DNA from: an uncultured Acidobacteriota bacterium
GTDB lineage: Bacteria > Acidobacteriota > Vicinamibacteria > Fen-336
NCBI GenBank assembly: GCA_963732935.1
Contig: CAVTBK010000004.1
Span: 258,327 to 322,326, forward strand
Reading direction: 5' to 3'
DNA length: 64,000 nucleotides
Made by a program: the position numbers and the translations under genes
In this document: piece by piece, positions 27,394-57,680 of the stretch
How the letters are laid out: each line of letters opens with the position of its first letter
How positions within the stretch are numbered: the stretch's first letter is position 1
The notes under the pieces: generated by a model
What the model was told of the DNA's origin: nothing
Database searches by the model: none
What the model saw: only the letters and a program-made list of their open reading frames with translations

Positions 27394-28861
27394 ATGCGCA
27401 TCTCTCGATGGATCGTGCTCGTGCTCGGTGCGTGCCTCCTGCCTGCGGGACTCTCGGCCCAGGCGCGGCCCACGCCGACCCCCTCGCCGTCCGGGCGGCG
27501 GAACCCGTTCCTGATGAGCCCGGAGGAACGCGCGCGCCTGGACCGGCTGTCGCGTGAGGACCACGCCGACATGATGAGGCAGCTCGGCATCACGAAGCTT
27601 CGGCCCGGCTACGACGGCTGGGCGACCGCCGGCAGTCCGGGCGCCGCGAACTACGACGAGGCCAAGGCCAACCCCTACCCCGACTGGCCGGACGTGCTGA
27701 CCATGAAGGACGGCCGGAAGGTGACGACGCCGCAGCAATGGTGGCAGGAGAGACGCCCGGAGATCGTCCGCGACTTCGAACGCGAGGTCTACGGCCGCGT
27801 GCCCGCCGACGCACCCAAGGTGGCCTGGAACGTGGCCGAGACCGCGAGGACGACGGTCGGCGGCCGGCCGGTCGTAGCCCGACGCGTGATCGGGCACGTC
27901 GACAACTCCGCTTGTCCCTCGATCGCGGTGGACGTCGAGATGGCGGTCGTGCTGCCCGCGCGCGCCAAGGGGCCGGTTCCGGTCCTGATCATGTTCGGCT
28001 GGGGCAACATGCCCGACGAGCCGGTGCCGCACTTCCCGGGCTTCCAGGAACCAAAGGCTCCACCCTCCCCGAGTCAGCTCGTCGCCGCGGGCTGGGGCTA
28101 CGTGTCACTCAGCCCCTCCAGCATCCAGGCCGACAACGGGGCCGGCCTGACCGAGGGCATCATCGGGCTCACCAACCAGGGCAAGCGCCGCACGCCCGAA
28201 CAGTGGGGCGCGCTCCGCGCCTGGGCCTGGGGAGCAGCGCGCGCGCTCGACTACCTCGAGACCCTGCCCGCGGTCGACGCCAAGCGCGTGGGCATCGAAG
28301 GAGTCTCGCGCTACGGCAAGGCCGCTCTCGTCACCATGGCCTTCGAGCCGCGCTTCGCGGTCGCGCTCGTCGGATCGTCCGGCGAAGGGGGCGCCAAGCC
28401 GCACCGCCGCAACTTCGGCGAGGCGGTCGAGAACCTCACTGGTTCCGGTGCCTACCACTGGATGGCCGGCAACTTCCTCAAGTACGGCGCCGCCGAGTCG
28501 TCCTTCGGCAGCAGGAACGCGAACGACATTCCGGTCGACGCTCACGAGCTGATCGCCCTGTGCGCACCGCGCCCTGTCTTCATCAGCTACGGGGTCCCCG
28601 AGAACGGCGACGCCAAGTGGCTTGATCAGAAGGGGAGCTTCATGGCGGCGGTGGCCGCGGGGCCGGTCTATCGCCTCCTCGGCGCGCGCGACCTCGGCGT
28701 GAGAGAGGACTACCGCGTGGCCAGGATGCCGCCCCCCGGGACGGGCCTCCTGGACGGTGCCCTCGCCTGGCGCCAGCACGACGGCGGGCCACGAGGACCG
28801 CTCGAACATGAGCTTCTTCATCGCCTGGGCCGACCGGATGCTGCGTGCCACGATCCCCTAG
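27394..28861 (+). CDS. CE15-like glucuronoyl esterase with signal peptide; apparent 1-nt frameshift near 28795
   Basis: ATG 27394 (RBS GGAGG); signal peptide MRISRWIVLVLGACLLPAGLSAQA. IEGVSRYGKAALVTMAFEPRFAVALVGSSGEGGAKPHRRNFGE resembles the CE15 G-C-S-R-x-G nucleophile region (V in place of C). The last ~20 aa (…HEDRSNMSFFIAWADRMLRATIP*) are in the +1 frame and end 25 nt before the next gene. Confidence 0.7.
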
Positions 28862-28885
28862 AATCCTTCCTGCGGGAGGTAACGC

Positions 28886-31093
28886 ATGGAAACACGGCTC
28901 CCTCATCTCGCGAGTCGTTTCGGCGAGGCTGCGATCGCCGGGGTCCTGACGGCCGTCCTGGCCGGATGTGGCGGCGGCGAGACGCCGGGCGTCACTTCCA
29001 GCAGCGGCAGCCCGGACGAGCGTGCCGACCAGCTGATCGCCCAGATGACGTTGGACGAGAAGATCCAGCTGGTCCACGGCGGCGCGGCCACCGACTGGTG
29101 GAACCACGTCCTCCCGCACGGCGGCGGCTGGGTGCCCGGCATCCCGCGGCTGGGGATCCCGGACCTCTACCTGGCGGACGGAAGCGTCGGCCTGGCCAAC
29201 AAGGCGGGGCCGGCGACCGCCCTGCCCTCCTCGATCGCCAGCGCCGCCAGCTGGGATCTCGAGCTGGCCTACAGGTACGGTCAGGTGATCGGGACCGAGG
29301 CGGCGGCCAAGGGCATCAACGTGAACCTCGGCGGCAACGTCAACCTGATCGGACGCGAGCCCCGCGACGGGCGCACGTTCGAGACCAAGGGCGAGGACCC
29401 GACCCTGGCGGGTCGGATCACGGCGGCGCACCTGCGCGCGATCCAGGACCAGCACGTGATCGCCGGCGTCAAGCACTTCGCCCTCAACGACCAGGAGACC
29501 GGCCGCTTCACTGCCGACGTGAGGATCGGCGACCGCGACGCGCGGGAGAGCGACCTGCTCGCCTTCGAGATCGCGGTCCGCGACTCGGACGTCCAGTCGG
29601 TGATGTGCTCCTACAACCTCGTGAACGGCGTCTACGCCTGCGAGAATCCCGAGCTGCTGAACGGCGTGCTGAAGGGTGATTGGGGCTTCCGGGGCTTCGT
29701 CATGTCGGACTGGGACGCCACCCACAGCACGGTCCGCGCGGTCCAGAGCGGGCTCGACCAGGAGCAGCCGGAGAACCTGTATCTCGACACTGACCTGAAG
29801 CAGGCCGTCCAGAGCGGAGCGGTCCCAAGCTCGAGGCTCGACGACATGGTCCACCGCATCCTGCGCGCGATGTTCGCCGCGGGAATCTTCGAGCACCCCC
29901 CGGCGGTGGGCTCGATCGACGCTGCGGCGGGCGCCGCTGCCGCGCAGGAGGCGGAGGAGCAGGGCGCGGTACTGCTGAAGAACACCGGCCTCCTACCGCT
30001 CGACCCCTCGACACACGACTCGATCGCGATCATCGGGGCGCACGCCGACGTCGGCGTGCTCTCGGGCGGCGGCTCGGCGCAAGTGATACCCATCGGCGGA
30101 CCGGCCCTCACCGAGGGCTACCCCAACCCGCCCGGCTGGTCCCAGGTCGTCTGGGTGCCCTCCTCGCCGCTGGCGGCGATCCGCGCGGCGGCCCTCGGGG
30201 CGAACGTGCGCTTCGACGACGGCACGAACGCCGCCGCCGCGTCGGCTCTGGCAGCGGCCTCCACCGTGGCGGTGGTGTTCGTCGCCCAGTGGGAGAGCGA
30301 GGGCATGGATCGCCCCAGCCTGAACCTGGTCGACGTGGTCCACTCGAACCCGATCGACCAGGACGCGCTGGTAGCGGCGGTCGCCGCGGCCAATCCGCGC
30401 ACGGTCGTGGTGATCGAGAGCGGCGGTCCCGTCGTGATGCCGTGGCTGGCGCGGGTCGGCGCCGTGCTCGCGGCCTGGTATCCCGGGCAGCGCGGGGGCG
30501 AGGCCATCGCCAACATCCTCTTCGGCGCGGTCAATCCCTCCGGCAAGCTCCCGCTCACCTTCCCGGCGCGGGTCGGGGACCTGCCGCGCCCGACCATCGA
30601 CGTCCCCGCGAACTCGACAACGCCCTTCACGGTCGACTACACGATCGATGGCTGGCGGGTCGGCTACAAGTGGTTCGACTCCCGGCACCTCACACCGCTC
30701 TTCCCGTTCGGCTACGGGCTCTCCTACACGACCTTCTCGATCGGCAACCTGCAGCTCGCGGCGACGCCGGCCGGGACCGACTCGGCGTTCCAGGTGAGCC
30801 TCGAGCTGCAGAACACCGGAGGCCGGGCGGGCGCCGAGGTGGCGCAGGTCTATCTGGATCTGCCCGCCGCGACGGGCGAGCCGCGACGGCTGGTGGGTTG
30901 GCAGAAGGTCGCCCTCGACCCCGGCCAGCAACAGCGGGTGACGATCGAGGTCAAGGCAGGCGACTCGGCGCACCCTCTCTCGTACTGGGACGAGGGTTCG
31001 CACGCCTGGGTGGTCGCTTCGGGGACGTACGGCGTCCAGGTCGGCGACTCCTCGCGCCACCTCCAATCGGCCGGTACGTTCCACGTGCCCTAG
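28886..31093 (+). CDS. GH3-family beta-glucosidase/beta-xylosidase lipoprotein
   Basis: ATG 28886 (GGGAGG upstream). Lipobox LAGC. GH3 motifs …KHFALNDQE…, nucleophile region GFVMSDWDA, and the C-terminal fibronectin-like domain. Confidence 0.9.
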   Translation: METRLPHLASRFGEAAIAGVLTAVLAGCGGGETPGVTSSSGSPDERADQLIAQMTLDEKIQLVHGGAATDWWNHVLPHGGGWVPGIPRLGIPDLYLADGSVGLANKAGPATALPSSIASAASWDLELAYRYGQVIGTEAAAKGINVNLGGNVNLIGREPRDGRTFETKGEDPTLAGRITAAHLRAIQDQHVIAGVKHFALNDQETGRFTADVRIGDRDARESDLLAFEIAVRDSDVQSVMCSYNLVNGVYACENPELLNGVLKGDWGFRGFVMSDWDATHSTVRAVQSGLDQEQPENLYLDTDLKQAVQSGAVPSSRLDDMVHRILRAMFAAGIFEHPPAVGSIDAAAGAAAAQEAEEQGAVLLKNTGLLPLDPSTHDSIAIIGAHADVGVLSGGGSAQVIPIGGPALTEGYPNPPGWSQVVWVPSSPLAAIRAAALGANVRFDDGTNAAAASALAAASTVAVVFVAQWESEGMDRPSLNLVDVVHSNPIDQDALVAAVAAANPRTVVVIESGGPVVMPWLARVGAVLAAWYPGQRGGEAIANILFGAVNPSGKLPLTFPARVGDLPRPTIDVPANSTTPFTVDYTIDGWRVGYKWFDSRHLTPLFPFGYGLSYTTFSIGNLQLAATPAGTDSAFQVSLELQNTGGRAGAEVAQVYLDLPAATGEPRRLVGWQKVALDPGQQQRVTIEVKAGDSAHPLSYWDEGSHAWVVASGTYGVQVGDSSRHLQSAGTFHVP

Positions 31094-31236: not shown

Positions 31237-32340
31237 TCAGAGCCGGACGGTCTTGCCGGCGGCCGCGGACTCGTAGATGGCGGTCATGATCCGGAGGTCC
31301 TGGCGCCCCTCCTCGCCCGGAACCTTGGTAGGACGGCCGGTGAGGATGCAGTCGGCGAAGTCGTCCATCTCGGCGGCGAACTGGTCGATGTCGGGCAAGC
31401 TCATCTCCTTCACCCCGTCGCTGCCGTAGGTGCGGCCCCGGATGCCGTGGTAGTAGAGCGCGGGCGAGAGCTCGAACGCCCCCTGTCCCGCGCCGGCCCA
31501 GAAGCGGCTGAGATTCGTGGCGTAGCTGCTGCTGCAGCCGGCGAGGATGCCGTTCGGGAACTCGAGGTCGAAGAGGACCGACTCGTCGACGTCCTTGAAC
31601 TTCGCGGGCTCGGTCACGCTCGAGCGCGCGCTGACCGCGATCGGCTCGGCGCCCGCGATATGGCGGGCCGCCTGCAGCGCGTAGATGCCGATGTCCATGA
31701 GCGAGCCGCCGCCCGAGAGCTTCTTGTCGAGGCGCCACTGGGAGGGATCGCCGATGCGGAAGCCCGCCGAGGCCTCGATCACCTTCACCGGTCCGAACGT
31801 CCTCTCGCGGGCGAGCCGCACCATCTCCAGGTTGTAGGGCTCGAAGTGCAGCCGGTAGCCGATCGCGAGCTGGCGCCCGGCGGCGCGGCAGGCCGCGATC
31901 ATCTCGTCGCACTCCTTCACCGAGACGGCCATCGGCTTCTCGCACAACACGTGCTTGCCGGCCTTCGCCGCGCGGATCGTGTACTCCGCGTGCATGCTGT
32001 TCGGCAGCACGACGTAGACCACGTCGATCTCGGGATCGTCGGCAATGCGATCGAAGGTCTGGTAGCTGTAGAGGCTCTCGGCCGGGACGCCGTAGCGGCT
32101 CGCCCACTCGCGCGCCTTGTCGGGGTGGCCGCTCACCAGGCCGGCCAGCCGGCAGTTCCGAGTGCGCGCGAACGCCGGCGCGAGCTGCTCGCCGGCGAGC
32201 TTCCCCAGCCCGACCAGGGCGAAGCCCAGCCGCCGGCGCGGTGGCTGTTGGGCGGCCAGCACATCCCCCATCCCCACGAGCGGCGATGCGGCGGCGGCTC
32301 CGACGGCCAGGCGCAAGAAGCGGCGGCGACTCTGGGGCAT
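31237..32340 (-). CDS. Gfo/Idh/MocA-family NAD(P)-dependent oxidoreductase with a TAT signal; candidate periplasmic sugar dehydrogenase
   Basis: Start MPQSRRRFLRLAVGAAAASPLVG (twin-arginine motif; ATG 32340). Rossmann motif GFALVGLGKLAGEQ. EKP motif LCEKPMA. Confidence 0.85.
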   Translation of the reverse strand: MPQSRRRFLRLAVGAAAASPLVGMGDVLAAQQPPRRRLGFALVGLGKLAGEQLAPAFARTRNCRLAGLVSGHPDKAREWASRYGVPAESLYSYQTFDRIADDPEIDVVYVVLPNSMHAEYTIRAAKAGKHVLCEKPMAVSVKECDEMIAACRAAGRQLAIGYRLHFEPYNLEMVRLARERTFGPVKVIEASAGFRIGDPSQWRLDKKLSGGGSLMDIGIYALQAARHIAGAEPIAVSARSSVTEPAKFKDVDESVLFDLEFPNGILAGCSSSYATNLSRFWAGAGQGAFELSPALYYHGIRGRTYGSDGVKEMSLPDIDQFAAEMDDFADCILTGRPTKVPGEEGRQDLRIMTAIYESAAAGKTVRL

Positions 32341-32717: not shown

Positions 32718-34313
32718 CTAGGTGCCCGCTGCGCTCGTCCACCTCCCGTCGACCAGGCGCCAGATCCCGCGGGGATTGTCGTCCCTGAGCTCGGGCGGGA
32801 GGGCCTCCTCCGGGAAGCCCTGATAGCAGACCGGATGGGCGAAGCGCTCGATCGAGGCGGTGCCGATGGACGTGTAGTGGGAGTCGGTCGTGGCCGGATA
32901 GGGCCCGCCGTGGTGCATGGCGGCGCACACCTCGATCCCGGTCGGGAATCCGTTGAAGACGATCCGACCGACCCGGCGTTCCAGGATGCGAACCAGCCCG
33001 CCGTGGCTCTCGAGCTCTGCGTGGGTACCGTGGATCGTCGCCGTGAGGTGGCCACGCATGCGGCGCGCGACCCGCTCGAGGTCCGAGGCGGTCGGGCACG
33101 AGATGACGACCGAGACCGGGCCGAAGACCTCCTCCCACAGTCGCGGCTGGGCGTCGAGCGTCGCGAGGTCCGTGCTGAACAGGACGCAGGGCACCTCGGT
33201 CTTGCCGGCGTCGGCGGGCGCCTTCGACTCGCCCAGCAACCGCACACCGGGCGTCTTGCGGAGGCGGCCCAGGCCGCCGTGAAAGGACTCGCAGGTCCCC
33301 CGGTTGAGCATCGTGGCGGGCGCCACCTCGCGCGCGCTCGCCGCGATCGCCTCGAGAAATGGTTGAAAGGCAGGGCCCGCGACACCGAGCAGGATGCCGG
33401 GGTTGGTGCAGAACTGCCCCGTGCCGAGCGTCACGGACTGGACGTAGCCGGCGGCGATCTCGGCTCCGCGCGCAGCCATGGCCTCGGGCAGCACGAACAC
33501 GGGGTTGGTGCTGCCCATCTCGGCGTAGACGGGAATCGGCTCGGGCCGGGCCGCCGCGGCGTCGAAGAGGGCGTGTCCACCGGCCTGCGACCCCGTGAAG
33601 GCCACGACCTTCGTGAGCGGGTGACGGACGAGCGCGAGACCTACCTCGTGACCCGCCCCATGCACCATGCCGAAGACGCCGGGCGGCACGCCGCTCTTCC
33701 CGGCGGCCGCGACGATGGCGCGCCCGATCATCTCGCAGGTGCCGGGGTGCCCGGGATGGGCCTTGGCCACCACCGGGCAGCCGACCGCCAGGGCGGAGAC
33801 GGTGTCGCCGCCGCCGACCGAGATGGCAAACGGAAAGTTGCTGGCGCCGAAGACCGCCACCGGCCCGATCGGATGCAGCATGCGGCGCACGTCCGGCTTG
33901 GGAAGCGGCTGGCGGTCCGGGGCGGCGTGGTCGATGCGCGCCTCCACCCAGGACCCTTCGCGCACGAGCTGGGCGAAGAGACGCGTCTGGCTGACCATGC
34001 GGGTGCGCTCCCCCGCCAGCCGGGCCGAAGGCAGCGCCGTCTCGGCATGGGCCTGCTCGAGGAGAGCATCACCCAGGCCCAGCCATTCCTCGGCCACGGC
34101 CTCCAGGAAGGCGGCGATCGTCTCGCCGCCGAGACCGCGGTAGGCGTCGAAGGCCTGGTCGGCGGCCTGGAGCGCGCGGTCGACCTCGGCCTCGGTGGCC
34201 TCGTGAACCGGAGCTGTCGTCGCCTCCCCCGTCGACGGGTTGCGCCCGACGAAGGTGGTCTTCCCCTCCGCAACGGCCTCGCCCGCGATGATCTGTCGAC
34301 CGTGAAGCTCCAT
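32718..34313 (-). CDS. Aldehyde dehydrogenase, 2,5-dioxovalerate (alpha-ketoglutarate semialdehyde) dehydrogenase-like
   Basis: ALDH-superfamily length and motifs (…FTGSQAGG…, catalytic …GTGQFCTNPG…, …VYAEMGSTNP…). Co-operonic with the FAH and IlvD/EDD genes. Confidence 0.85.
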   Translation of the reverse strand: MELHGRQIIAGEAVAEGKTTFVGRNPSTGEATTAPVHEATEAEVDRALQAADQAFDAYRGLGGETIAAFLEAVAEEWLGLGDALLEQAHAETALPSARLAGERTRMVSQTRLFAQLVREGSWVEARIDHAAPDRQPLPKPDVRRMLHPIGPVAVFGASNFPFAISVGGGDTVSALAVGCPVVAKAHPGHPGTCEMIGRAIVAAAGKSGVPPGVFGMVHGAGHEVGLALVRHPLTKVVAFTGSQAGGHALFDAAAARPEPIPVYAEMGSTNPVFVLPEAMAARGAEIAAGYVQSVTLGTGQFCTNPGILLGVAGPAFQPFLEAIAASAREVAPATMLNRGTCESFHGGLGRLRKTPGVRLLGESKAPADAGKTEVPCVLFSTDLATLDAQPRLWEEVFGPVSVVISCPTASDLERVARRMRGHLTATIHGTHAELESHGGLVRILERRVGRIVFNGFPTGIEVCAAMHHGGPYPATTDSHYTSIGTASIERFAHPVCYQGFPEEALPPELRDDNPRGIWRLVDGRWTSAAGT

Positions 34314-34333: not shown

Positions 34334-35161
34334 CTAGCCCATCTCGTTGACCAGCGTTCCGATCGGCCCGATCGTGATCCGCACCGCGTCACCGCGCCGG
34401 AGGCAGAACCGCCCGGGCGGAACGATCCCCGTTCCCGTCATCAGGAAGCAGCCGACGGGGAAGGCGTTGTCGCGGAAGAGATACGCCACCAGTCGCGCCA
34501 GCGGCTTGCGCAGCTCGGAGAGCCGCGTCTCTCCCCGGAAGATCGTTCGACCGGCACGGCGGATGCCGAGGGAGATCCGCGTCGTGGGCGGCAGGGGCGC
34601 CTCCGCGATCAGCAGCCCTGGACCGATGGCAGCGCAGGCCTCGAAGGTCTTGGCCTGCGGGAGGTAGAGAGGGTTCTCTCCCTCGAGGTCGCGGCAGCTG
34701 AGGTCGTTCCCGACGGTGTAGCCGACGATGCGGCCGCGGCTGTTGACGGCGAGCGTCAGCTCGGGCTCGGGGACGATCCAGCCCGAGTCGCGCCGGAGAT
34801 GCATGGTGCCGCCGGGACCGACCACCCGGTGGGGCGTCGCCTTGAAGAACAGCTCCGGGCGGTGCGCCCGATAGATGTGGTCGTAGAAGCTGCTGCCGCC
34901 GGCGTCCTTCGACTCGGACATGCGCGCCGTGCGGCTGCGCGCGTAGGTCACGCCCGCCGCCCAGACCTCCTGACCGCCGATGGGAGCGAGCAGCCTGGCC
35001 TGCCGCGGGAGCCGCCGGAGCGGCTCCGCGGAGCGGACCGTGGCGCGCAGGAACGCCGGCAGCGCGCGCCGGTTGAAGAGCGCGTCCCAGTCGCCCGGCA
35101 CGCGATGGTAGCGACCCTCCTGCTCGACGAAGATGCCGGCGGACGAGCGGTAGAGAATCAT
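34334..35161 (-). CDS. Fumarylacetoacetate hydrolase (FAH) family protein; candidate 2-keto-3-deoxy-pentonate dehydratase (XylX/KdxD-like) by context
   Basis: Start [16 protein letters not shown] (ATG 35161). FAH-fold motifs …[11 protein letters not shown]…, …[19 protein letters not shown]…, …GTGIVPPG…. Follows the dehydratase gene with a 1-nt gap. The track ORF carries a spurious 102-codon N-terminal extension. Confidence 0.8.
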
Positions 35162-35162
35162 C

Positions 35163-37136
35163 TCACTGCCCCCGCGGCTTCCTGCCCGTCGCGAGGGCGG
35201 CGAGGATCGCGTCGACGTCGTAGACGCACCCACCCCATGTCCCCCCGCCGACCTCCTGGAGCGCCGCCCACAGTCGCGTATCGTCCGGGAGTCCGGCGTG
35301 CGGCGCGAGGTCGGCGCGCTGCGGCCGGCGTTCGAGCTCGCCCGCCCCCCACTCGGCGCCAAGCACGTCACCGTCACTCCCGACCAGGTCCAGCCGTGCC
35401 TCGAGCGTCCTGCGATCGATGACGATCTCCACCAGGTCTCCGTCGCGCAGGCGTCCGATCGGACCACCCGCCAGGGCCTCGGGGGAGACGTGTCCGATGC
35501 ACGCGCCGCTCGAGACGCCGGAGAAGCGCGCGTCCGTGACGATCGCCACCTGCTTGCCCCACGGGAGGTGCTTCAGGGCGGAGGTGAGCTGGTAGGTCTC
35601 CTCCATGCCCGTGCCCATCGGGCCGCAGCCGGCGAGGATCAGGATGTCACCGGCCTTGACGGCCTCGGGGCCGCGGGACTTGAGGGCCGCGATCGCCTGC
35701 TCCTCGCTCGTGAAGACGCGCGCGGGACCCAGCTTGCGATAGACGCCGTCTTCGTCGACGACACCAGGATCGATGGCGGTGCTCTTCACCACCGCGCCCT
35801 GCGGCGCGATGTTCCCGACGGGAAAGGCCACCGTGCTGGTCAGGCCCGCGCGTCGGGCCGCGTCGGGATCCAGGATGACCGTGGCCGGATCGACGCCGTC
35901 CTGCTCGACCAGGAGGGCCTTGAACCGGCGACGCCGCTCGGACCCTTCCCATTCGTCGAGCACCTCGCCCAGCGGCCGTCCGAGCGCGGTCAGGCACTCG
36001 AGCTCGAGCAGCCCGAGCCGCCTCAGGTGGAGCATGACCTCGGGCACGCCACCGGCCAGGAAGACGCGCACCGTGGGATGCAGTACCGGGCCGTTCGGGA
36101 TCACGCTCACCAGGCGCGGGACCTCGCGGCTGACCTCGACCCACTCCCGGACCGTCGGCCGAGGGAGCCCGGCGGCATGCGCCACCGCCGGCAGGTGCAG
36201 GATCAGGTTGGTCGAGCCGCCGAATGCGGCATGGACGACCATGGCGTTGCGAACCGCGCGCTCCGTCAGGACCTGCTTCACGGCCACGCCGGCCGCTTCG
36301 TTGCGCACGACCGCGCGCGCCGACTGCCTGGCGATCTCACGCCAGACCTCGAAGCCCGACGGCGCCAGGGCCGAGTGCGGCAGCGAGAGGCCGAGCGTCT
36401 CCCCGACTACCTGCGAGGTCGCGGCGGTGCCCAGGAACTGGCAGCCTCCGCCGGCCGAGCCGCAGGCGCGGCAGCTCAGCTCGGCCGCCTGATCGAGCGA
36501 CACCAGGCCGTGCGCGTAGCGCGCTCCGAGCGTCTGCGCGGCGCCGGCGTCCTCGGCGCCCCTGGCCGGCAGGGTGACGCCTCCCGGCACGAGAACGGCC
36601 GGAAGCTCCCGGCATCCGGCGAGGGCCATCATCATCGCGGGATGGCCCTTGTCGCAGGTGGCGACCCCGATGAGACCACGCCGGGTCGGGAGCGAGCGAA
36701 CCAGGCGGCGCAGGACGATCGCCGCGTCGTTGCGGTACGGCAGGCTGTCGAACATCCCCGTCGTACCCTGCGTGCGGCCGTCGCACGGGTCGCTGCAGAA
36801 GCCGGCGAAGGGCACGCCGCCCTGCGCCTCGATCTCGCGTGCGGCGGCCTCCATCAGCAGACCGACCTCCCAGTGCCCGGTGTGGTAACCCAGCGCGACC
36901 GGCGTGCCGTCCGGCGCGCGGATCCCGCCCAGCGTGCTCAGGATCAGGAACTCCTTGCGGCCGAAGCCCACAGGGCTCCAGCCCATGCCGACGTTCTGCG
37001 TCCAGCCGAAGAGCTCGCCGCTGGGCCGGCGCAGCAGCGCGTCCTCGCTGACGGGCAGCCGGCCCTGAGGGCCGGCGCCCGTGGTGCGCAGCTCGTAGAC
37101 CGAGTCGCCGACGGCGTCGAAGAAGGGCGAGTCCAT
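35163..37136 (-). CDS. IlvD/EDD-family sugar-acid dehydratase, 657 aa (YjhG/YagF xylonate-dehydratase-like length)
   Basis: Start MDSPFFDAV (ATG 37136). IlvD/EDD motifs …[16 protein letters not shown]…, …[10 protein letters not shown]…, …[24 protein letters not shown]…. The track ORF adds a ~270-codon false N-terminus. Confidence 0.9.
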
Positions 37137-38648: not shown

Positions 38649-39026
38649 TCAGCGCCGCTTGCGGTTCGGCGCCCGGTTCACGAAGTCCTCGAGGGCCTGG
38701 CGGCTCGGCCCGTCGGTCGCGCCGAACTGCACGGCGAGACCGTGGGGATGCTGCGGCGACTCCTCGCCAGTCTGGGCGACCCGCACGACGCGCGCGGGCA
38801 GGCGCAGCTCGCGCCGGCCGGGCAGCAGCAGCAGCTTCAGCACGACCTCGTGCGCGAGCGGGAGGCTCACCCGGGTGACCACGAAGGCGCCCGTCGCGCT
38901 CACGTCGGCCAGACCGACGATGTGCTCGCGGCCCTGCGCCACGAGCACCGCCGCCTGGCCGAACGGGAGCGCCCGGCGGCGCGCCCGCCCTCCCTTTCCG
39001 GACACGCTCGACGCGAGCTTCGCCAT
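38649..39026 (-). CDS. PilZ-domain protein (c-di-GMP receptor-like), 125 aa
   Basis: ATG 39026; RxxxR motif GRARRRALPF and D/NxSxxG motif DVSATGAFV. The upstream part of the 366-aa track ORF is antisense to the deaminase gene. Confidence 0.7.
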   Translation of the reverse strand: MAKLASSVSGKGGRARRRALPFGQAAVLVAQGREHIVGLADVSATGAFVVTRVSLPLAHEVVLKLLLLPGRRELRLPARVVRVAQTGEESPQHPHGLAVQFGATDGPSRQALEDFVNRAPNRKRR

Positions 39027-39659: not shown

Positions 39660-39738
39660 GGCGCCACCTGGGGGCAGGCCGCCGAGGCCGGGGCGAGCAC
39701 CGCGACCAGGACGGCCAGGGGGACGACGGACTCGCTTC

Positions 39739-49683: not shown

Positions 49684-51884
49684 TGCTCCGCAACCTGTAC
49701 CACGCCTCCCTCACGGCCCTGGTCGCCTTCGCCGCCCTCGCCGCATCCGCGCCGGTGCGGGCCGAGGACGGCTACGAGCTATGGCTGCGCTACCGTCTCG
49801 TGTCCGACCCCGCCCGGGTCGAGGCCTATCGCGCGGCTCTCACGCAGCTGCTGCTGCCTGGTGAATCCCCCACCCTGCGCGCCGCGCGCGAGGAGCTGCG
49901 ACGCGGACTGGGCGGGCTGCTCGGAGCGGAGATCGTCGACGTGTCGAGCCTTCCCGGGCGCGACGGGCACGACCAGGACGCGAAGGGCGTGCTGGTCGTG
50001 GGCACCAGGCAGAGCTGCCCCGAGATCGCGGCACTCGACCTCGACGACGCCCTCGCGCGCGCGGGCCGCGAGGGTTTTCTGCTCCGCAGGACGAGCGTCC
50101 GCGGCACCCCCGTGACGTTGGTCGCCGCCAACACCGAGATCGGCGTCCTCTACGGCGCCTTCGCGCTGCTGCGGCGGGTCGCGACCGAGAGCCCGCTCGA
50201 CGTCCTCGACCAGGTCGAGGCGCCGCGCATCCAGCATCGCCTGCTCGACCACTGGGACAACCTCGACCGCACGGTCGAGCGCGGCTACGCGGGCTGCTCG
50301 CTGTGGGACTGGTTCAAGCTGCCCGACTACCGCGAGCCCCGCTACACGGACTACGCGCGGGCGAACGCCTCGATCGGGATCAACGGCGCGGTGCTGAACA
50401 ACGTCAACGCCGACGCCATCAGCCTGACCCACCCGTATCTGGCGAAGGCGGCGGCCCTGGCCGAGGTCTTCCGGCCCTACGGCATCCGGGTCTACCTGAG
50501 CGCCCGCTTCAGCGCCCCGGTGGAGATCGGCGGGCTCACGACGGCCGACCCGCTCGATCCCGCCGTCGCGTCCTGGTGGAAGCGGAAGGCGGACGAGATC
50601 TACCGCCTGATCCCCGACTTCGGCGGTTTCCTGGTGAAGGCGAACTCGGAGGGGCAGCCCGGGCCGCAGGACTACGGCCGCAGTCACGCGGACGGCGCCA
50701 ACCTGCTCGCCGACGCGCTCGCGCCCCACGGCGGCATCGTGATGTGGCGGGCCTTCGTCTACTCGCACGAGGTACCGGAGGACCGGGCCAAGCAGGCCTA
50801 CGACGAGTTCCACCCGCTCGACGGTGCCTTCCGGCCGAACGTGCTGGTGCAGGTGAAGAACGGCCCCATCGACTTCCAGCCGCGGGAGCCCTTCCACCCC
50901 CTCTTCGGCGCCATGCCGAAGACGCCGCTCGCGCTCGAGCTGCAGATCACCCAGGAGTACCTGGGCTTCTCGACCCACCTCGTCTTCCTGGCGCCGCTCT
51001 TCGAGGAGGTGCTGCGAGCCGACACCTTCGCCCGGGGCGAAGGCTCGACCGTGGCGAAGGTGGTCGACGGCTCGCTCGAGGGCCACCAGTTGACGGGCAT
51101 CGCCGGCGTCGCCAACGTGGGCAGCGATCGCAACTGGTGCGGTTCGGTCTTCGCCTGCGCCAACTGGTACGCGTTCGGCCGCCTGGCCTGGGACCCGGGT
51201 CTGGCGTCCGCGACGATCGCCGACGAGTGGCTGCGCCTGACCTTCACCAACGATCCCGCCTTCCTGGCGCCCGCCGCGGGGATGATGCTGCGCTCCCGCG
51301 AGGCGGCGGTCGACTACAGGACGCCGCTCGGACTCGTTCACCTGATGGCGCGAGGGCACCACCACGGCCCGGGGCCCTGGGTGAGCGGAGGTCCCCGCCC
51401 CGACTGGACCTCCGTCTACTACCACCGCGCGGACGCGGAGGGGATCGGCTTCGACCGCACCGCCACCGGCAGCGACGCGGTCGCCCAGTACGCCCCGCCG
51501 GTCCGCGACGAGTTCGCCAGCCTGGACCGCTGCCCCGAGAAGTACCTGCTCTTCTTCCATCACGTTCCCTGGGACTACCGCCTTCGGTCGGGTCGGACCC
51601 TGTGGGACGGACTGGTCGACCACTACTACCGGGGCGTCGAGGAGGTGCGGGCGATGCAGGCGACCTGGGACTCGCTGGCCCGGTTCGTCGACGCCGAGCG
51701 CTACCGGCAGGTGCGCGTCTTCCTGGGGATCCAGGAGCGCGAGGCCCGCTGGTGGCGTGACGCCTGCGTGCTGTACTTCCGGACCTTCTCGAAGCGCCCG
51801 GTCCCCGCCGGCTACCCCGCACCGGCCGGGACCCTGGAGCAGTACATGGCGATCGACGAGCGCTACGTTCCGGGGAGCCGGTGA
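49683..51884 (+). CDS. GH67 alpha-glucuronidase (xylan alpha-1,2-glucuronosidase) with signal peptide
   Basis: Signal peptide, then the hallmark DGYELWLRY; …VLVVGT…[20 protein letters not shown]…; central TIM-barrel region …[12 protein letters not shown]…. Confidence 0.9.
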
Positions 51885-52699
51885 GCGGCCTCCCGAGCTT
51901 CGACCTCGCGGACCGGGTCGCCGTGGTCACGGGAGGCTACGGAGTCATCGGCGGCAGCCTGGCCGACGGGCTCGCCGCTGCCGGCGCGAAGGTCGCGGTC
52001 CTGGGCCGCAGCCGGGAGGCCGCCGAGGCGAAGGCCGCGGGCCTCCGGCGCTCGCGTGCCTCGTCCCTCGCCCTCGTGGCCGACGTGCTCGATCGCGCCG
52101 CGCTCGAGGCCGCGCGCGAGGCCGTCCTCGCGGCCTGGGGGCGCCTCGACGTGCTGGTCAACGCGGCGGGCGGCAACGTCCCGGACGCCCGGACCGACGA
52201 CACGCCGGTCTTGACGCTGGACCTGCCCGCCTTCGACGCCGTCGTCCAGCTGAACCTCAACGGTGCGGTGCTGCCGACGCTCGTCTTCGGCGAGGCGATG
52301 GCCCGCCAGCGCAAGGGCAGCATCGTCAACATCTCCTCGATGGCGGCGAGCCGTGCCCTCTCCGGCGTCCCCGGCTACTCGGCGGCCAAGGCCGGCATCG
52401 AGAGCTTCACCCGCTGGCTCGCCGTCGACCTCGCGCGTCGGTGCGGCCCCGAGCTGCGCGTCAACGCGGTGGCGCCGGGCTTCTTCCTCGCCAGCCAGAA
52501 CCGCGACGTGCTGATGAAGCCGGACGGCTCGCTCAGCGCGCGGGCGGAGGCGATCCTGGGCCACACGCCCATGCGCCGCTTCGGGGAACCGAGGGAGCTG
52601 CAGGGCGCCGTCGTCTGGCTCGCCAGCGAGGCATCCTCGTTCGTCACGGGCGCGGTCATCGCGGTCGATGGAGGCTTCAGTGCAGACACCGGAATCTAG
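51881..52699 (+). CDS. Classical SDR-family oxidoreductase (candidate uronate or fructuronate/mannonate dehydrogenase by context)
   Basis: GTG 51881 overlaps the GH67 stop (GTGA). [26 protein letters not shown] (TGxxxGxG), NAAG, catalytic YSAAKAG (YxxxK). Confidence 0.85.
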
Positions 52700-53741
52700 G
52701 CGGCAGGCGGCCCTGGAACGCTTCCTGGTCGCCGCGCGCGGCGGGCGGCCCGATCAGGTCCCCACCGCCCTCATCGTCGACAGCCCCTGGCTGCCCGGCT
52801 TCGTGGGGATGGACACGCGTGACTTCTTCCTCGATCCCGCGCTCTGGCTGGCCGCTCACCTGCGGATCGCCGAACGCTTCCCTGACGTGGTCTTCCTGCC
52901 CGGTTTCTGGGTGGAGTACGGCATGGCCAACGAGCCGGCGGCCTTCGGCGCTCGGCCGCTCTGGCAGGCCGATACCCCGCCCCCGCTCAGACCGATCGAC
53001 CTGCCGGTCGAGCGCTGGGGCGAGCTGCCGCGGGTCGATCCGGAGACGGACGGTCTTATGCCCTTCGTGCTCCGCCGCATGGAACGGCTGGAGCGCGGCG
53101 AGCTGCCCGAGCCCCACCGAGCGCACTTCGCCGCCGCCCGGGGGCCGCTCGCGGTGGCCAGCCATGTCCTGGGGATGACCCCCTTCCTGGAGGCGACGGC
53201 CGCCGCGCCCGACGCGGCACGGGCGGCCCTCGACGTCTTCACCGACACGGCGATCGCGTTCCTGCGCGCGCAGCTCGAGCGCCTGCGGGAGCCGCTCGGC
53301 ATCCTCCTGCTCGACGACGTGGCCGGACTCCTCTCCCCGAGGGGCTTCGACAGCCTCGCCCTGCCCTGCCTGCAGCGGGTTCTCGACGCCTTCCCGGGCA
53401 AGGTCCGCATCTATCACAACGACACGCCCTGCCCGCACCTGCTCTCCCGGATCGGTCAGCTGCACTGCGAGGTCTGGAATCTCAGCCACGAGCTGGACCT
53501 GGGCGAGGTGCGCGCCGCGGTCGGGCCGGGGATGGCCCTGATGGGCAACGTCGCCCCCCTCGACCTCATGGTTCGGGGAACGCCCAAAGAAGTCTCTGAC
53601 GCTGCACGCGCTTGTATCGCCGATGGGGCGTCGAGCGGGGCCTTCGTCCTCTCGGCGGGGGGCGGCCTCTCCCCGGGAACGCTCGCGGAGCACATCGATG
53701 CTCTCGTGGACGCTGCCCGCCTGGGCCTGGCGGCCGAATGA
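52668..53741 (+). CDS. Uroporphyrinogen-decarboxylase (URO-D) superfamily protein, MtaA/CmuA-like; function in this locus unknown
   Basis: …[35 protein letters not shown]… N-terminus and overall length typical of URO-D-like (beta/alpha)8 proteins. Start 52668 overlaps the SDR gene by 32 nt. Confidence 0.7.
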   Translation: MEASVQTPESRRQAALERFLVAARGGRPDQVPTALIVDSPWLPGFVGMDTRDFFLDPALWLAAHLRIAERFPDVVFLPGFWVEYGMANEPAAFGARPLWQADTPPPLRPIDLPVERWGELPRVDPETDGLMPFVLRRMERLERGELPEPHRAHFAAARGPLAVASHVLGMTPFLEATAAAPDAARAALDVFTDTAIAFLRAQLERLREPLGILLLDDVAGLLSPRGFDSLALPCLQRVLDAFPGKVRIYHNDTPCPHLLSRIGQLHCEVWNLSHELDLGEVRAAVGPGMALMGNVAPLDLMVRGTPKEVSDAARACIADGASSGAFVLSAGGGLSPGTLAEHIDALVDAARLGLAAE

Positions 53742-53765: not shown

Positions 53766-53807
53766 CCGCCCGGGCGTCTCGGGTGGCCGCCCGGGCGTCT
53801 CGGGTGG
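53766..53807. repeat. Perfect 21-bp tandem duplication CCGCCCGGGCGTCTCGGGTGG x2 just downstream of the URO-D-like gene
   Basis: Direct reading of 53766-53786 and 53787-53807. Followed by the inverted repeat GGAGTCGCC (53812-53820) / GGCGACTCC (53840-53848). Confidence 0.8.
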
Positions 53808-53906
53808 CACAGGAGTCGCCGCTTCTCACCTCGCCGGGAGGCGACTCCCAGATCGCGCTGGCGTTTCGGATCTTTGGATCAGGACTCGGAAAATTGCTCT
53901 ATTGTC

Positions 53907-53955: not shown

Positions 53956-53985
53956 TTGACATCCCTCCCGTCCTCGACCTATAAA
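53956..53985 (+). promoter_or_regulatory. Sigma-70-like promoter candidate TTGACA-N18-TATAAA for the TonB-dependent receptor gene
   Basis: TTGACA 53956-53961, 18-nt spacer, TATAAA 53980-53985, ~90 nt upstream of ATG 54076. Confidence 0.5.
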
Positions 53986-54018: not shown

Positions 54019-54048
54019 TTCGCGTCCGCAAATTTCGCGTCCGCAAAT
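54019..54048 (+). promoter_or_regulatory. Perfect tandem 15-bp direct repeat TTCGCGTCCGCAAAT x2 between the -10 box and the RBS: candidate operator
   Basis: 54019-54033 and 54034-54048, located ~35 nt downstream of the -10 box and 28 nt upstream of the start codon. Confidence 0.45.
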
Positions 54049-54075: not shown

Positions 54076-57000
54076 ATGGACTTTATCCGTGGCTTCCGCT
54101 TGGCGGCGGTGGCGGCCCTGGTGGGGCTGCTGGTGCTGGCGGGCGGAACGTCGATACAGGCGCAGACGACCAGCGCGTCGGTGTCGGGCACCGTCAAGGA
54201 CTCCCAGGGAGGGGTCCTGGCCGGCGCGACCGTGACGCTGACGAGCCGCACCCAAGGCAGCACGCTGACGGCCATCGTGAACAGCGCCGGAAGCTTCGCA
54301 TTCCCGATCGTGCGTCCGGACACGTACACGCTCCGGGTGACGATGGAAGGCTTCAAGACGCTGGAGCGCGACAACCTGGTGGTCAACGCGAACGACCGGC
54401 TCTCCGCCGGCAACCTGGTCCTCGAGGTCGGCTCGCTCACCGAGAGCGTCACCGTTTCCTCGCGCGTCAGCGAGCTGCAGTCGACTAGCGGTGAGCGCTC
54501 GTACACCCTGGAGAGCGAAGCGATCAGGGACATCGCCTCCAACTCGCGCCAGTTGTTCAACTACGCGCTGCTCGTCCCTGGCGTCGTCTCCACCGACACC
54601 AACGCCGGCACCGAGCGGACCCAGGTGTCCAGCATCGTCGTGAACGGCCAGCGGGAGACCTCCAACAACGTGACGGTCGACGGTGTCGCCAACATCGACA
54701 CGGGCGACAACGGCGGCAACATGGCCGTCACCAACACCGAGGCCATCGCCGAGTTCAAGGTCCTGACGAGCTCGTACCAGGCGGAATACGGACGCGCGGT
54801 CGGCGGGCAGGTGCAGATGGTGACCAAGAGCGGGACCCAGTCCTTCCACGGCTCGGGTTACTGGTTCGGCCGCCGCTCCGGCTGGAACGCCAACAGCTGG
54901 ACCAACAAGCGTGCCGGGGCGCCTGCGCCGGTCGGCAACGGCGCGGTGATCGAGCCACCGACGGCCACGCGTGACGACTTCGGTTTCACGATCGGCGGCC
55001 CGATCTACATCCCGGGCCTCTTCAACACGGACAAGAAGAAGCTCTTCTTCTTCTGGAGCGAGGAGTTCCAGAAGCGCAGCAGCCCGCCGTCGCAGCGCAC
55101 GGCGCGCGTGCCCACCGCCCTCGAGCGGGCAGGGGACTTCTCCCAGAGCGTCGACAACAGCGGCAACCCCTATCCCTACATCCGCGACTACACGACCGGC
55201 CTGCCCTGCAACGCCAGCGATACCCGCGGCTGCTACCAGGACGGCGGCGTCGTCGGTAAGATCCCCGCGAGCCGCCTCTATGCTCCCGGCCTCGCCGCGC
55301 TCGGCCTCTTCCCCTCGCCGAACTACACCTCCGGCGGCGGCGTCAACTACACGAGCCAGGACTCGGACAGTTCGTCACCGCGTTCGGACCTGATCCGGCT
55401 GGACTTCCAGCCCAGCGACAACTGGCGCGTCACCGGCCGCTACATGCAGACCAAGAACGACACCACCCAGGCGTACGGCACCCCCTGGGCCGGTAACGGC
55501 AGCTACCAGGTCCCGATGGCAGTGCTCTTCAAGAACCCCGGCTACAACTTCATGGTGAGCACCAGCGGCATCCTCAACAACTCGACCTCGCTCGAGCTGA
55601 GCGTCGGGACCGCGCACAACTCGCTCAACTACGAGATGCAAGCCCAGCAGCTGTACCGGGCGAACTCGGGGCTCAGCGACTTCCCCTACCTCTATCCGGA
55701 CGCCGTCCAGGCCGACTACGTCCCGTTCTTCCAGTTCGGCGGCACGAACATCGGAAACCAGGCCGAGTACCAGACGAACAACGGCCCGTTCGCCAACTAC
55801 AACACGACCTGGGACGTGGTCGCGAACCTGACGAAGATCTGGGGAGCGCACAACTCCAAGTTCGGCATCTACTTCCAGAGCAGCAAGAAGCCCCAGACGA
55901 TCTTCTACAGCTTCAACGCCCAGGTGGACTTCGCCGGCAACCCGAGCAACCCCTACGACACGAGCCTCAGCTACGCCAACGCGGCGACCGGGGTGTTCAA
56001 CACCTACACCCAGGTCAACAAGTACTCGATGCCGAAGTGGGAGTACAAGAACCTCGAGTTCTACCTCCAGGACAACTGGAAGGCCAGCTCCAGGCTCACG
56101 CTCGACTACGGCGTGCGCTTCTACTACATGACGCCGCAGTGGGACGTGGATAAGGGCGTCTCGAACTTCCTGCCCGACAAGTACGACCCCAGCAAGGCCG
56201 CGCAGCTCTACGCCCCGGCCATCGTCAACGGCGTGAAGGTCGGGCGCGATCCCGCCACGGGCCAGACGGTCGACGCGCGCTTCATCGGCCGGCTGACCCC
56301 GGAGTCGGACCGGTTCAACGGAGCCTTCGAGGCCGGCCAGGGGATCTCCGACACGGTGCAGAGCGGGAGCGTCTTCAAGGTGTCTCCTCGCCTCGGCTTC
56401 GTGTTCGACCTCACTGGGAAGGGCGACACCATCGTCCGCGGGGCCGGCGGGATCTTCTACGACCGCCCGATGGGCAACATCGACTTCGACATGGGCGGCA
56501 ACGCGCCGAGCGTCCTGAACTCCACCCTCCAGTGGGGGCAGCTGCAGAACCTCAGCGCTGCGCAAGGGGACCCCAACGCGCCGCTGTCGCTGTCCCCGAC
56601 CGCCTACGACTTCAACCCTCCCAAGGTCTACGCCTGGAACATCGGCCTGCAGCAGAAGCTGCCGGGCAAGGTGATCTTCGACATCGCCTACGTCGGCTCC
56701 TCGTCGAAGAACCTGGTGCGCAGGTCGCAAATCAACTCGCCGGCGCTGGGCGCCACCTTCGACCCGGCCAACCAGGACCCGACGAAGCCCGCAAACCTCA
56801 ACGGGAGCTCCGCGCTGCCCACCGACTTCCTGCGGCCCTACCCGGGCTACTCCAACATCAATGCCTATGACTACTCGGGCTTCTCGAGCTACAACTCGCT
56901 GCAGACGTCGGTGCAGCGGCGGTTCGACAACGGGTTCATGTTCGCGGTCTTCTACGTCTGGAGCAAGAACCTCACGACCAACACCTCGGACTACACCTCA

Positions 57001-57680
57001 GACGGAGTGCCCGGGGGCGTCGTGGGCGACCACGCCACGATCAGGCAGTACGACTACTCGTATTCGAACTGGGACCGCCCGCACAACTTCGTCATCAACG
57101 CCATCTACCAGACGCCGAAGGTGACCGACAACGCTGCGCTCGGTCTCCTCGTGAACGGGTGGCAGCTCTCGGGGGTCTACCGCTTGACGAGCGGTCAGGC
57201 CTACCCGATCACGTACGCGATCTCCGGCGTCTCCAACGACAACCTGACCGGCACGAGCATGCCTGCCGCCCGCATCGTCGTCACCTGCGATCCGGGCGGC
57301 GGCACGAGCAGCGATCCTTACAAGCAGTTCGACACCTCGTGCTTCGCTCCGCCGCAGCCGGGCAGCAACGGCAACGAGTCGGCCCGGCGCTTCATGCACG
57401 GGCCGTGGACCAACAACCTCGACCTGTCGATCTCCAAGTCCTTCACGTTCTACAAGGACCTGAAGCTCGAGGTGCGCCTGGACGCCTTCAACGCGCTCAA
57501 CCACACCCAGTTCACGGGCGTCAACGCCAATGCCAACTTCAACAGCACGAGCGACCCCACGATCACCAACCTGCCCTACAACTCGGCCGGGGCAATCTGG
57601 TCAACGTCAACGGGTTCGGCGCCATCAACGGTGTGGCATCCCCGCGGACGATCCAGCTGGTCACGCGGCTGACGTTCTAG
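54076..57680 (+). CDS. TonB-dependent outer-membrane receptor-like protein with an N-terminal CarboxypepD_reg domain (Acidobacteria type); apparent 1-nt frameshift near 57588
   Basis: ATG 54076 (GGGAGG). Signal peptide, then CarboxypepD_reg …VSGTVKDSQGGVLAGATVTLTSRTQG…RPDTYTLRVTMEGFKT…, a plug-like region, and a very long beta-barrel. The expected C-terminal …GNLVNVNGFGAINGVASPRTIQLVTRLTF* is in the +1 frame from ~57590. Confidence 0.8.

Follow-up and report, generated by a model that had tools for sequence, protein, structure and literature searches.

A predicted glucuronoxylan utilisation system in two neighbouring gene modules of an uncultured acidobacterium

A 64,000-nucleotide (nt) stretch of contig CAVTBK010000004.1 (assembly GCA_963732935.1, positions 258,327 to 322,326 of the forward strand) from an uncultured Acidobacteriota bacterium of the Vicinamibacteria, hereafter the window, was analysed with a focus on positions 27,394 to 57,680. 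We consider it probable that this region encodes a glucuronoxylan utilisation system in two neighbouring modules, and that the single-base insertions that break two of its genes arose during assembly. Among the xylan systems known from diderm bacteria, the locus is a variant in which a Geobacillus-like GH52 β-xylosidase is combined with a non-canonical, widely conserved enolase-superfamily protein and a short-chain dehydrogenase/reductase (SDR), accompanied by a protein of the URO-D fold, in place of UxaC and UxuA. Glucuronoxylan utilisation was also the central reading of the first-pass annotation of this DNA, and it held. The same gene set recurs around paired enolase and GH67 genes in other soil bacteria. 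The region is not the one island described there; it consists of two modules that are split by about 5 kb of unrelated genes.

Gene content of the locus

Because the G+C content of the window is about 71%, raw lists of open reading frames (ORFs) consisted mostly of spurious frames. The gene map was therefore based on third-position GC analysis together with Pfam and NCBIfam scans of the window ORFs. Signal peptides and the lipobox were read by eye from the N-termini, and the localisations given below are predictions of that kind. The second module, in the order of its genes, comprises:

43610–44965, plus strand: GPH-family glycoside-pentoside-hexuronide:cation symporter, YagG/XypB-like (MFS_2, 266 bits)
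45009–47277, plus strand: GH52 β-xylosidase without signal peptide, predicted cytoplasmic (Glyco_hydro_52, PF03512, 439 bits)
47286–48437, plus strand: GH10 endo-xylanase with its own ATG and a signal peptide, cleavage predicted before E (Glyco_hydro_10, PF00331, 296 bits)
48439–49683, plus strand: enolase-superfamily acid-sugar dehydratase (MR_MLE_N, MR_MLE_C)
49683–51884, plus strand: GH67 α-glucuronidase with signal peptide (…AASAPVRA, cleavage predicted before ED; Glyco_hydro_67N, M and C, 81, 507 and 310 bits)
51881–52699, plus strand: classical SDR of the D-mannonate oxidoreductase (YjmF/UxuB-like) type (PRK08277, 339 bits against a cutoff of 281)
52680–53741, plus strand: URO-D-fold protein (URO-D, 127 bits; all NCBIfam models under their cutoffs)
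54076–57672, plus strand: TonB-dependent receptor (CarboxypepD_reg 63 bits, Plug 28 bits, OMP_b-brl_4 531 bits)

The first module holds a plus-strand gene pair and a minus-strand sugar-acid operon:

27394–28861, plus strand: CE15 glucuronoyl esterase gene (GCE_fung, PF22244, 111 bits)
28886–31093, plus strand: GH3 glycosidase, predicted lipoprotein with the lipobox LAG-C (Glyco_hydro_3, Glyco_hydro_3_C and Fn3-like domains)
37151–38551, minus strand: GntP-family sugar-acid:H+ symporter, first gene of the operon (GntP_permease, 304 bits)
35163–37136, minus strand: YjhG/YagF-type D-xylonate dehydratase (TIGR03432, 1079 bits against a cutoff of 808; ILVD_EDD domains)
34334–35161, minus strand: FAH-family protein of 275 aa, candidate 2-keto-3-deoxy-xylonate dehydratase, XylX/KdaD-like (FAA_hydrolase domain)
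32718–34313, minus strand: aldehyde dehydrogenase, candidate 2,5-dioxovalerate (α-ketoglutarate semialdehyde) dehydrogenase (Aldedh domain)
31237–32340, minus strand: Gfo/Idh/MocA oxidoreductase, candidate periplasmic xylose (aldose) dehydrogenase (Pfam; twin-arginine signal)

The unrelated genes between the modules (38649–43016) encode a PilZ protein, a cytidine deaminase, a secreted unknown protein, a C_GCAxxG_C_C protein, a phosphopantetheinyl transferase and UbiA. The families proposed earlier for CE15, GH3, GPH, GH52, GH10, GH67 and the TonB receptor were all borne out by the Pfam and NCBIfam scores, and the N-termini fit the export of CE15, GH10, GH67 and GH3 and the cytoplasmic placement of GH52. 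The same annotation was right about the families of CE15 and GH52 and had overlooked a frameshift in each as sequenced, which affects two of the five genes for hydrolytic or esterolytic enzymes. Apart from these two, every gene of the two operons is intact and has a strong codon bias.

From this gene set, a route for glucuronoxylan can be proposed. The CE15 enzyme would free the polymer from its esters with lignin, and GH10 would cut the backbone. Oligosaccharides would pass the outer membrane through the TonB receptor, after which a periplasmic GH67 would take off the terminal 4-O-methyl-glucuronate. The inner-membrane GPH symporter would import the xylo-oligosaccharides, and GH52 would hydrolyse them to xylose. 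Xylose in the periplasm would be oxidised by the Tat-exported Gfo/Idh/MocA enzyme, and the xylonate would enter through GntP to be converted by the YjhG/YagF dehydratase, the FAH-family dehydratase and the aldehyde dehydrogenase to 2-oxoglutarate in a Weimberg-type pathway. The uronic acid would be handled by the SDR and the GudD-type enolase, with the URO-D-fold protein as an addition in this lineage.

Frame-corrected CE15 and GH52 genes

The CE15 gene begins with a Sec signal peptide, MRISRWIVLVLGACLLPAGLSAQA, with cleavage read by eye before R, and carries one extra base at about 28787–28789 in GACGGCGGGCCAC, one codon before the catalytic His of the GGH motif. As sequenced, the protein reads GGPRGP... 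and loses this His, and the ORF runs stop-free to 29679 with an 800-nt overlap into GH3, while the coding signal of its frame ends near 28790. Three-frame translation indicated that the natural stop (TAG, 28859–28861) can be reached in the +1 frame only, which also encodes the conserved CE15 C-terminus HEDRSNMSFFIAWADRMLRATIP. With the extra base removed, the product has 488 aa and aligns to its end with TtCE15A (PDB 6HSW, E = 1.6e-102), its nucleophile motif GVSRYGK lying opposite GHSRFGK and its corrected HDGGHEDRSN opposite HEGGHTPAPN. Homologues with 77–85% identity span the C-terminus as well, and the GH3 gene starts 24 nt past the corrected stop. Close CE15 homologues are mostly about 730 aa long, with CE15 fused to an SGNH/GDSL esterase domain; the form in the window is CE15 only, with about 488 aa.

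In the GH52 gene, an extra A at 47092 (CGGC[A]GCGTC) throws the 62 codons ahead of the natural stop out of frame, and the protein as sequenced lacks its last 62 residues. GH52 and GH10 consequently read as a single stop-free ORF of 1161 codons, in which ...FMHVTRQ is followed by 74 residues of Arg/Gly-rich out-of-frame junk and then by the GH10 signal peptide. The frame-corrected GH52 has 755 aa and aligns end to end with the XynB2 structures 8QME and 4RHH (E about 1e-150). The alignment with 8QME shows the motifs NEGEY and TYDSLD to be conserved, and the residues aligned with chain positions E335 and D495, the catalytic pair of XynB2, are kept. The C-terminus encoded in the +1 frame matches XynB2 to the last residue, and its TGA stands 8 nt before the GH10 ATG. 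In the translation of GH10, the motifs WDVVNEA and VTELDMD hold the acid/base and nucleophile glutamates, and its closest solved relatives are 4K68 (E = 3.6e-104), Cellvibrio Xyn10B (1UQY) and a Xanthomonas enzyme (4PMV).

The long ORF covers both the GH52 and the GH10 domains and could be taken for a genuine bifunctional enzyme, or for two proteins joined by programmed frameshifting, but either is extremely improbable. The would-be linker is out-of-frame junk, a signal peptide stands in the middle of the chain, the XynB2-conserved C-terminus of GH52 lies in the +1 frame, and the site has no slippery sequence. In the closest relative (contig L004), DNA alignment revealed a separate GH52 gene of 753 aa without the extra A, and GH10 is called on its own, with 383 aa, on the independent Logan contig L002. 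Both readings were accordingly rejected. Single-base indels in long-read contigs of metagenome-assembled genomes (MAGs) can thus yield false "fusion enzymes" such as this GH52-GH10 ORF.

Both insertions are, with a likelihood that we put at about two-thirds, assembly errors of a long-read metagenome contig, and in the organism itself CE15, GH52 and GH10 are probably intact and separate genes. Both lesions consist of one inserted base. Past it, the shifted frame keeps its coding signal and its conservation all the way to the natural stop, and relatives carry the intact 753-aa GH52 (L004) and intact CE15s. Three short contigs assembled independently from the run ERR11571143 match the window at 100% identity over 2.1–4.9 kb, and two of them start close behind the two insertion sites, at distances of 3 nt and about 25 nt. 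Since the contigs are only about 2–5 kb long, both breaks are unlikely to have fallen there by chance, which suggests that the reads disagree at these positions. In L004 it is GH67 that is split (6934–9211, with only a 277-aa GH67C fragment called), so that the gene affected within this operon differs from one long contig to another. Soil MAG assemblies of a comparable kind rely on Nanopore reads alone and received one round of Medaka polishing "to reduce indel errors" (PMC12313526).

The enolase–GH67 cassette

The enolase-superfamily gene had been described as GudD-like in the first-pass annotation, and this holds for its motifs but not for its score. The sequence contains HKLKGG, FDPNG, LEDP, ATN and VHSS, whose KxK, DPNG, EDP, N and H elements, matched without an alignment tool, presumably occupy the positions of the GudD catalytic residues. 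Against the GudD model (TIGR03247, aligned over residues 2–379), it scored 159.6 bits with a cutoff of 828.7, and against the ManD model (NF043051) 86 bits with a cutoff of 550. It was therefore rejected as a bona fide GudD or ManD. Its closest structures, 3VC5, 3VDG and 4IT1, are EFI structural-genomics targets, all of them uncharacterised.

The enolase is 81–97% identical over more than 120 clusters from four phyla (Acidobacteriota, Gemmatimonadota, Bacteroidota, Rhodothermales). Between these groups it keeps 81–85% identity, which is unusually high for a comparison across phyla and suggests strong constraint, horizontal transfer together with GH67, or both. Among the 27 well-flanked enolase loci, which have 4 kb or more on either side, GH67 lies directly before or after the enolase gene in 22. 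Other genes of the window were found around it less regularly: GH3 in 15 of the 27, an SDR in 11, a TonB-dependent receptor in nine, GH10 in five and CE15 in four. The receptor homologues at those nine loci are weaker, with 24–26% identity. The pairing with GH67 is also found in Longimicrobiaceae, Bacteroidetes and Gemmatimonadaceae genomes, and in the Gemmatimonadaceae relative a xylose isomerase and a kinase follow directly after enolase-GH67. The closest relative of the whole operon, L004, has the order MFS_2-GH52-GH10-GH3-enolase-GH67-SDR-URO-D, with 78–92% protein identity, and in two further Vicinamibacteria contigs (L009, L005) a receptor of the same architecture stands directly upstream of enolase-GH67-SDR-URO-D(-GH3).

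The SDR lies above the cutoff of the mannonate oxidoreductase model and reaches about 142 bits at most against KduD models. In both the isomerase (UxaC/UxuB/dehydratase) and the oxidative (Udh/GudD) routes for glucuronate, the dehydratase would take the proton at the original C5 and expel the substituent at the original O4. The 4-O-methyl group of 4-O-methyl-glucuronate, the preferred product of GH67, would then leave as methanol at the enolase step, which would make the conserved pairing of enolase and GH67 functionally sensible. A bolder version of this proposal, which we put forward tentatively and regard as somewhat doubtful, is that the enolase β-eliminates methanol from an acid sugar derived from 4-O-methyl-glucuronate (3-O-methyl-mannonate or 4-O-methyl-glucarate), that it forms an undescribed methyl-glucuronate module with the SDR, and that the URO-D-fold protein is a new enzyme of the hexuronate pathway. 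In the library searched, no paper was found that links URO-D or the enolase superfamily to GH67, xylan, 4-O-methyl-glucuronate or other uronates such as hexuronate.

The URO-D-fold protein

The last gene of the operon could be assigned to a fold with more ease than to a function. Against the HemE model (TIGR01464) the protein scored 42 bits with a cutoff of 303, so that it has only the fold in common with HemE (TM about 0.75), and against the MtaA/CmuA models it scored 72–93 bits with cutoffs of 235–244. Its AF2 model is a confident URO-D/MtaA-type barrel (pLDDT 87.7), and the best fold match was MtaA (4AY7, TM 0.80), in the alignment with which the Zn-ligand Cys is missing (GCG replaced by GGG). 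No corrinoid-binding gene was found among the frequent neighbours of its homologues. With its low scores, no Cys ligand and no corrinoid partner, a role as an MtaA-type Zn/corrinoid methyltransferase, that is, a sugar O-demethylase, is not supported.

More than 2000 homologues were found, the named ones from Vicinamibacteria and other MAGs. In Acidobacteriota the gene closes the enolase-GH67-SDR cassette in nine loci, and it is absent from 83 enolase loci of other lineages. The Chloroflexota homologues (46–60% identity) have UxaC (26 loci), UxaE (27 loci) and an SDR (22 loci) downstream on the same strand, often follow one or two URO-D paralogues, and lie near genes for LacI, Opp-type ABC transporters, NagA/NagB, AKR, PL22 and KduI. 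A simple replacement of UxaC by the URO-D-fold protein is weakened by this adjacency to UxaC. Judged by gene context, the protein appears to be a hexuronate-associated enzyme, and no one role (isomerase, dehydratase, decarboxylase or demethylase) fits both contexts. In the Chloroflexota MAG contigs (L014–L084; e.g., L075, 7586–14557), two or three tandem URO-D paralogues stand directly upstream of UxaC, UxaE and the SDR, with sulfatase, NagA, NagB, LarA-like, PL22 and KduI genes nearby. These tandem genes look like an uncharacterised uronate-processing family.

The sugar-acid operon and the fate of xylose

Two oxidative, non-phosphorylative sugar-acid routes had been proposed for the window. 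An oxidative xylose route has a firm anchor in the xylonate dehydratase, which scored well over its cutoff; an oxidative glucuronate route is not the better-supported option, because the enolase is far under the GudD cutoff and the SDR passes the mannonate oxidoreductase model. The FAH gene starts 1 nt after the stop of the xylonate dehydratase (XylD) gene, and the NCBIfam matches of the aldehyde dehydrogenase, all under their cutoffs, include 2,5-dioxovalerate dehydrogenase and GucD; both proteins fit a Weimberg route, with scores under the equivalog thresholds. The GntP protein falls just under the cutoff of its NCBIfam model (TIGR00791, 267 bits against 293).

The Gfo/Idh/MocA gene follows the aldehyde dehydrogenase gene after a 377-nt gap. 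Its product has the N-terminal sequence SRRRFLRLAVGAAAA..., in which the Tat signal MPQSRRRFLRLAVGAAAASPLVGMGDVLAA was read by eye, and its best NCBIfam match is the D-xylose 1-dehydrogenase Gfo6, with 218 bits and a cutoff of 350. The Tat signal and the GntP permease together suggest that xylose is oxidised in the periplasm and taken up as xylonate. The Pfam and NCBIfam scans found no Weimberg lactonase in the window, and none of its coding frames gave a xylose isomerase or an FGGY kinase domain, as the first-pass annotation had stated for xylose isomerase and xylulokinase. The xylose released by GH52 in the cytoplasm needs another route outside the window, and the absence of xylA and xylB from these 64 kb is therefore not evidence about the whole genome.

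Transcription units and uptake

The genes of the second module follow each other closely:

GPH/GH52: +43 nt
GH52 (corrected)/GH10: +8 nt
GH10/enolase: +1 nt
enolase/GH67: −1 nt
GH67/SDR: −4 nt (GTGA)
SDR/URO-D: −20 nt with the GTG start of the public gene call, −32 nt with an ATG at 52668

The tight coupling from GH10 to URO-D had been noted before as a series of 2–4-nt overlaps; the coupling stands, and the spacings are those listed here. The GPH gene start is preceded by a Shine-Dalgarno site, and the symporter passes its NCBIfam model (TIGR00792, 352 bits against a cutoff of 231). Three further elements lie upstream of the GPH operon and of the receptor gene:

43131–43391, plus strand: remnant of a ROK-family (XylR-like) regulator, 86 aa (BLASTP against the intact ROK regulator of L009)
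43335–43363, plus strand: σ70-like promoter TTGACA-N17-TATAAG, upstream of the GPH operon
53956–53985, plus strand: σ70-like promoter TTGACA-N18-TATAAA, 120 nt upstream of the receptor gene

A direct search for TTGACA-N16-19-TATAA returned these two matches in 64 kb, with 0 expected, which suggests that the GPH operon and the receptor gene are two transcription units with similar promoters. The strong promoter of its own that had been ascribed to the receptor gene is thereby supported. A generic promoter scanner reported nothing upstream of the receptor gene; it missed the TATAAA site because it required T at position 6 of the −10 hexamer. Between this promoter and the Shine-Dalgarno site of the receptor gene (GGGAGG), the 14-nt sequence TCGCGTCCGCAAAT is repeated in tandem (54020–54033 and 54035–54048) and is possibly an operator. 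The receptor gene starts 334 nt after the URO-D gene, and its product has a signal peptide, read by eye, and a barrel that matches a model of 838 positions. A 9-bp hairpin (53812–53848) lies 3′ of the URO-D stop. Just past the same stop, CCCGGGCGTCTCGGGTGGC occurs twice (53769–53808).

The ROK remnant aligns with residues 17–78 (E = 1e-6) and 374–412 (E = 2e-5) of the L009 regulator, and is thus an N-terminal helix-turn-helix piece fused to the C-terminal tail, with the sugar-binding core deleted. In L009, the intact regulator is divergently transcribed beside TonB receptor-enolase-GH67-SDR-URO-D-GH3. Since the promoter of the GPH operon lies within the 3′ end of the remnant, the operon may be deregulated.

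Comparison with known systems

The xylan "CUT" loci of Xanthomonas and Caulobacter reportedly contain a TonB-dependent transporter, XypB, Xyn10, Agu67 and hexuronate genes. The window resembles them in its TonB receptor without SusD, its GPH symporter, its exported GH67, the glucuronate-processing SDR in the same operon, and a small GH10 of periplasmic type that is near to Xanthomonas 4PMV and Cellvibrio Xyn10B. It differs from them in that its β-xylosidase belongs to GH52 and not to GH43 or GH3, a GudD-type enolase and the URO-D-fold protein take the place of UxaC/UxuA, xylose is tied to a Weimberg-type operon and not to XylAB, and the ROK regulator is only a remnant.

The cluster of Geobacillus stearothermophilus T-6 comprises XynB2 (GH52), AguA (GH67), the intracellular XynA2 (GH10) and uxaC-uxuAB-kdgKA. 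The trio of GH52, GH67 and GH10 is shared with the window, and the window GH52 aligns end to end with XynB2 (structures 4RHH, 4C1O and 8QME). Geobacillus, however, is a monoderm that imports oligosaccharides with ABC transporters and has its GH67 and GH10 in the cytoplasm, whereas in the window both enzymes carry signal peptides and uptake would proceed through the TonB receptor and the GPH symporter.

The sugar-acid operon is comparable to xylXABCD of Caulobacter crescentus, the haloarchaeal Weimberg pathway and E. coli YjhG/YagF in its xylonate dehydratase, FAH dehydratase, aldehyde dehydrogenase and Gfo6-like oxidoreductase. It differs from these systems in that the oxidoreductase has a Tat signal, the operon begins with a GntP permease, the lactonase gene is missing, and the dehydrogenase and the aldehyde dehydrogenase are under the equivalog cutoffs. 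With the SusC/SusD polysaccharide utilisation loci of Bacteroidota, the window shares the N-terminal carboxypeptidase-regulatory-like domain that its receptor has in common with SusC; unlike those loci, it has no SusD-family Pfam match in any of its ORFs. A SusC/SusD pair is carried by the Longimicrobiaceae relative with enolase-GH67. Compared with GudD and the GudX subgroup of the enolase superfamily, the enolase itself has full-length homology to the GudD model but reaches one-fifth of the cutoff, and its family is tied to GH67 and not to glucarate or galactarate operons.

The locus thus joins a TonB receptor and a GPH symporter, as in Xanthomonas and Caulobacter, to the GH52, GH67 and GH10 enzymes known separately from Geobacillus. 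It illustrates in concrete terms how soil Vicinamibacteria, which are abundant but uncultured, may use hardwood-type xylan. Of greater use are the comparisons, which tie a very strongly conserved enolase to GH67 across phylum boundaries and a URO-D-fold family to hexuronate genes. What becomes of 4-O-methyl-glucuronic acid in bacteria is still poorly defined, and both families are direct candidates for a part in it.

Alternative explanations

Several points weigh against the proposed system, and they concern its extent, its intactness and its uronate branch. As to extent, CE15-GH3 and the sugar-acid operon stand apart from the main operon, and in the one CE15 relative examined this linkage is not kept, the gene lying in an unrelated context beside a ribosomal operon. 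The GH3 enzyme, which the first-pass annotation had assigned to xylo-oligosaccharides, belongs to GH3 but resembles β-glucosidases more than β-xylosidases: its top 21 solved relatives are β-glucosidases (best 4I3G, 4e-115), and the first β-xylosidase follows at 1e-69 (7ZB3). The topology is not fully coherent either, since cytoplasmic xylose released by GH52 cannot reach a periplasmic dehydrogenase. Only the 43.3–57.7 kb segment, with its promoter, the GPH-to-URO-D genes and the TonB receptor, might then be the xylan locus proper, and CE15-GH3 and the operon from GntP to Gfo would be independent neighbours. The unrelated genes between the modules, their different strands and promoters, the unconnected Tat-exported oxidoreductase, and the lack of a shared promoter or operator motif (TTGACA...TATAA is confined to the sites ahead of the GPH operon and of the receptor gene) are in keeping with such a restricted locus. 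We nevertheless consider it unlikely, though worth keeping in mind, as CE15 and GH3 lie within 5–6 kb of enolase-GH67 in the four and 15 of the 27 soil loci counted above, the xylonate dehydratase is confidently assigned, and the neighbouring operon yields mainly xylose. As to intactness, the Nanopore origin of the window contig is inferred, the GH52 insertion lies outside any homopolymer, and real gene decay at the locus is possible, the adjacent ROK regulator being genuinely degraded. If both frameshifts, which are present in the deposited-type sequence, were real, the system would be partly non-functional, and together with the deleted ROK regulator they would show a lineage that is losing this capacity or has lost its regulation. 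The large internal deletions of the ROK remnant cannot be base-calling errors, and further downstream lie an ASPIC/UnbV fragment of 159 aa and, between a TPR ORF and an FG-GAP ORF, an in-frame TAG. We regard such decay as improbable, since beyond either frameshift there is no further decay, the shifted C-termini are conserved against PDB homologues, and the 183 nt past the GH52 insertion have only a handful of mismatches to L004. The intact remaining genes and the contigs of the same run that break at or near both insertion sites likewise argue for errors of assembly.

The uronate branch of the proposed system is incomplete as seen: a lactonase, UxaC, UxuA, KdgK, Eda and KdgD were not found in the window. 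The absence of UxaC and UxuA, the glucarate dehydratases among the best named NCBIfam and PDB relatives of the enolase, its GudD-type motifs, the cofactor-free decarboxylase fold of URO-D and the nearby aldehyde dehydrogenase with its 2,5-dioxovalerate dehydrogenase-like matches would also accord with an oxidative branch. In this branch, the SDR would oxidise (methyl)glucuronate to (methyl)glucarate, the enolase would eliminate water or methanol to form 5-keto-4-deoxyglucarate, the URO-D-fold protein would decarboxylate it to 2,5-dioxovalerate, and the aldehyde dehydrogenase of the neighbouring operon would yield 2-oxoglutarate. It is a rather unlikely alternative in view of the low GudD score, an SDR that is classical and not of the extended Udh type, the Chloroflexota URO-D homologues beside UxaC and UxaE of the isomerase route, and the enolase-GH67 modules of other phyla that do without a URO-D-like gene.

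Neighbouring genes

On the plus strand upstream of the locus (22372–27149), a gene for an ECF-type sigma factor (22372–22980) is followed by unannotated ORFs and a gene for a 1018-aa TPR-CHAT protein directly before CE15. A third frameshift, considered for a β-helix gene pair at 18290–21767, was rejected, as the pair looks like two genuine genes. Downstream of the receptor gene (57782–64000, plus strand) are three ASPIC/UnbV-FG-GAP genes, of which the first encodes 159 aa with a signal peptide. Within this stretch, a TPR ORF (to 59316) and an FG-GAP/UnbV ORF (from 59317) share the same frame with one TAG between them, and the latter has a signal-peptide-like N-terminus, yet no canonical start before the GTG at 59389.

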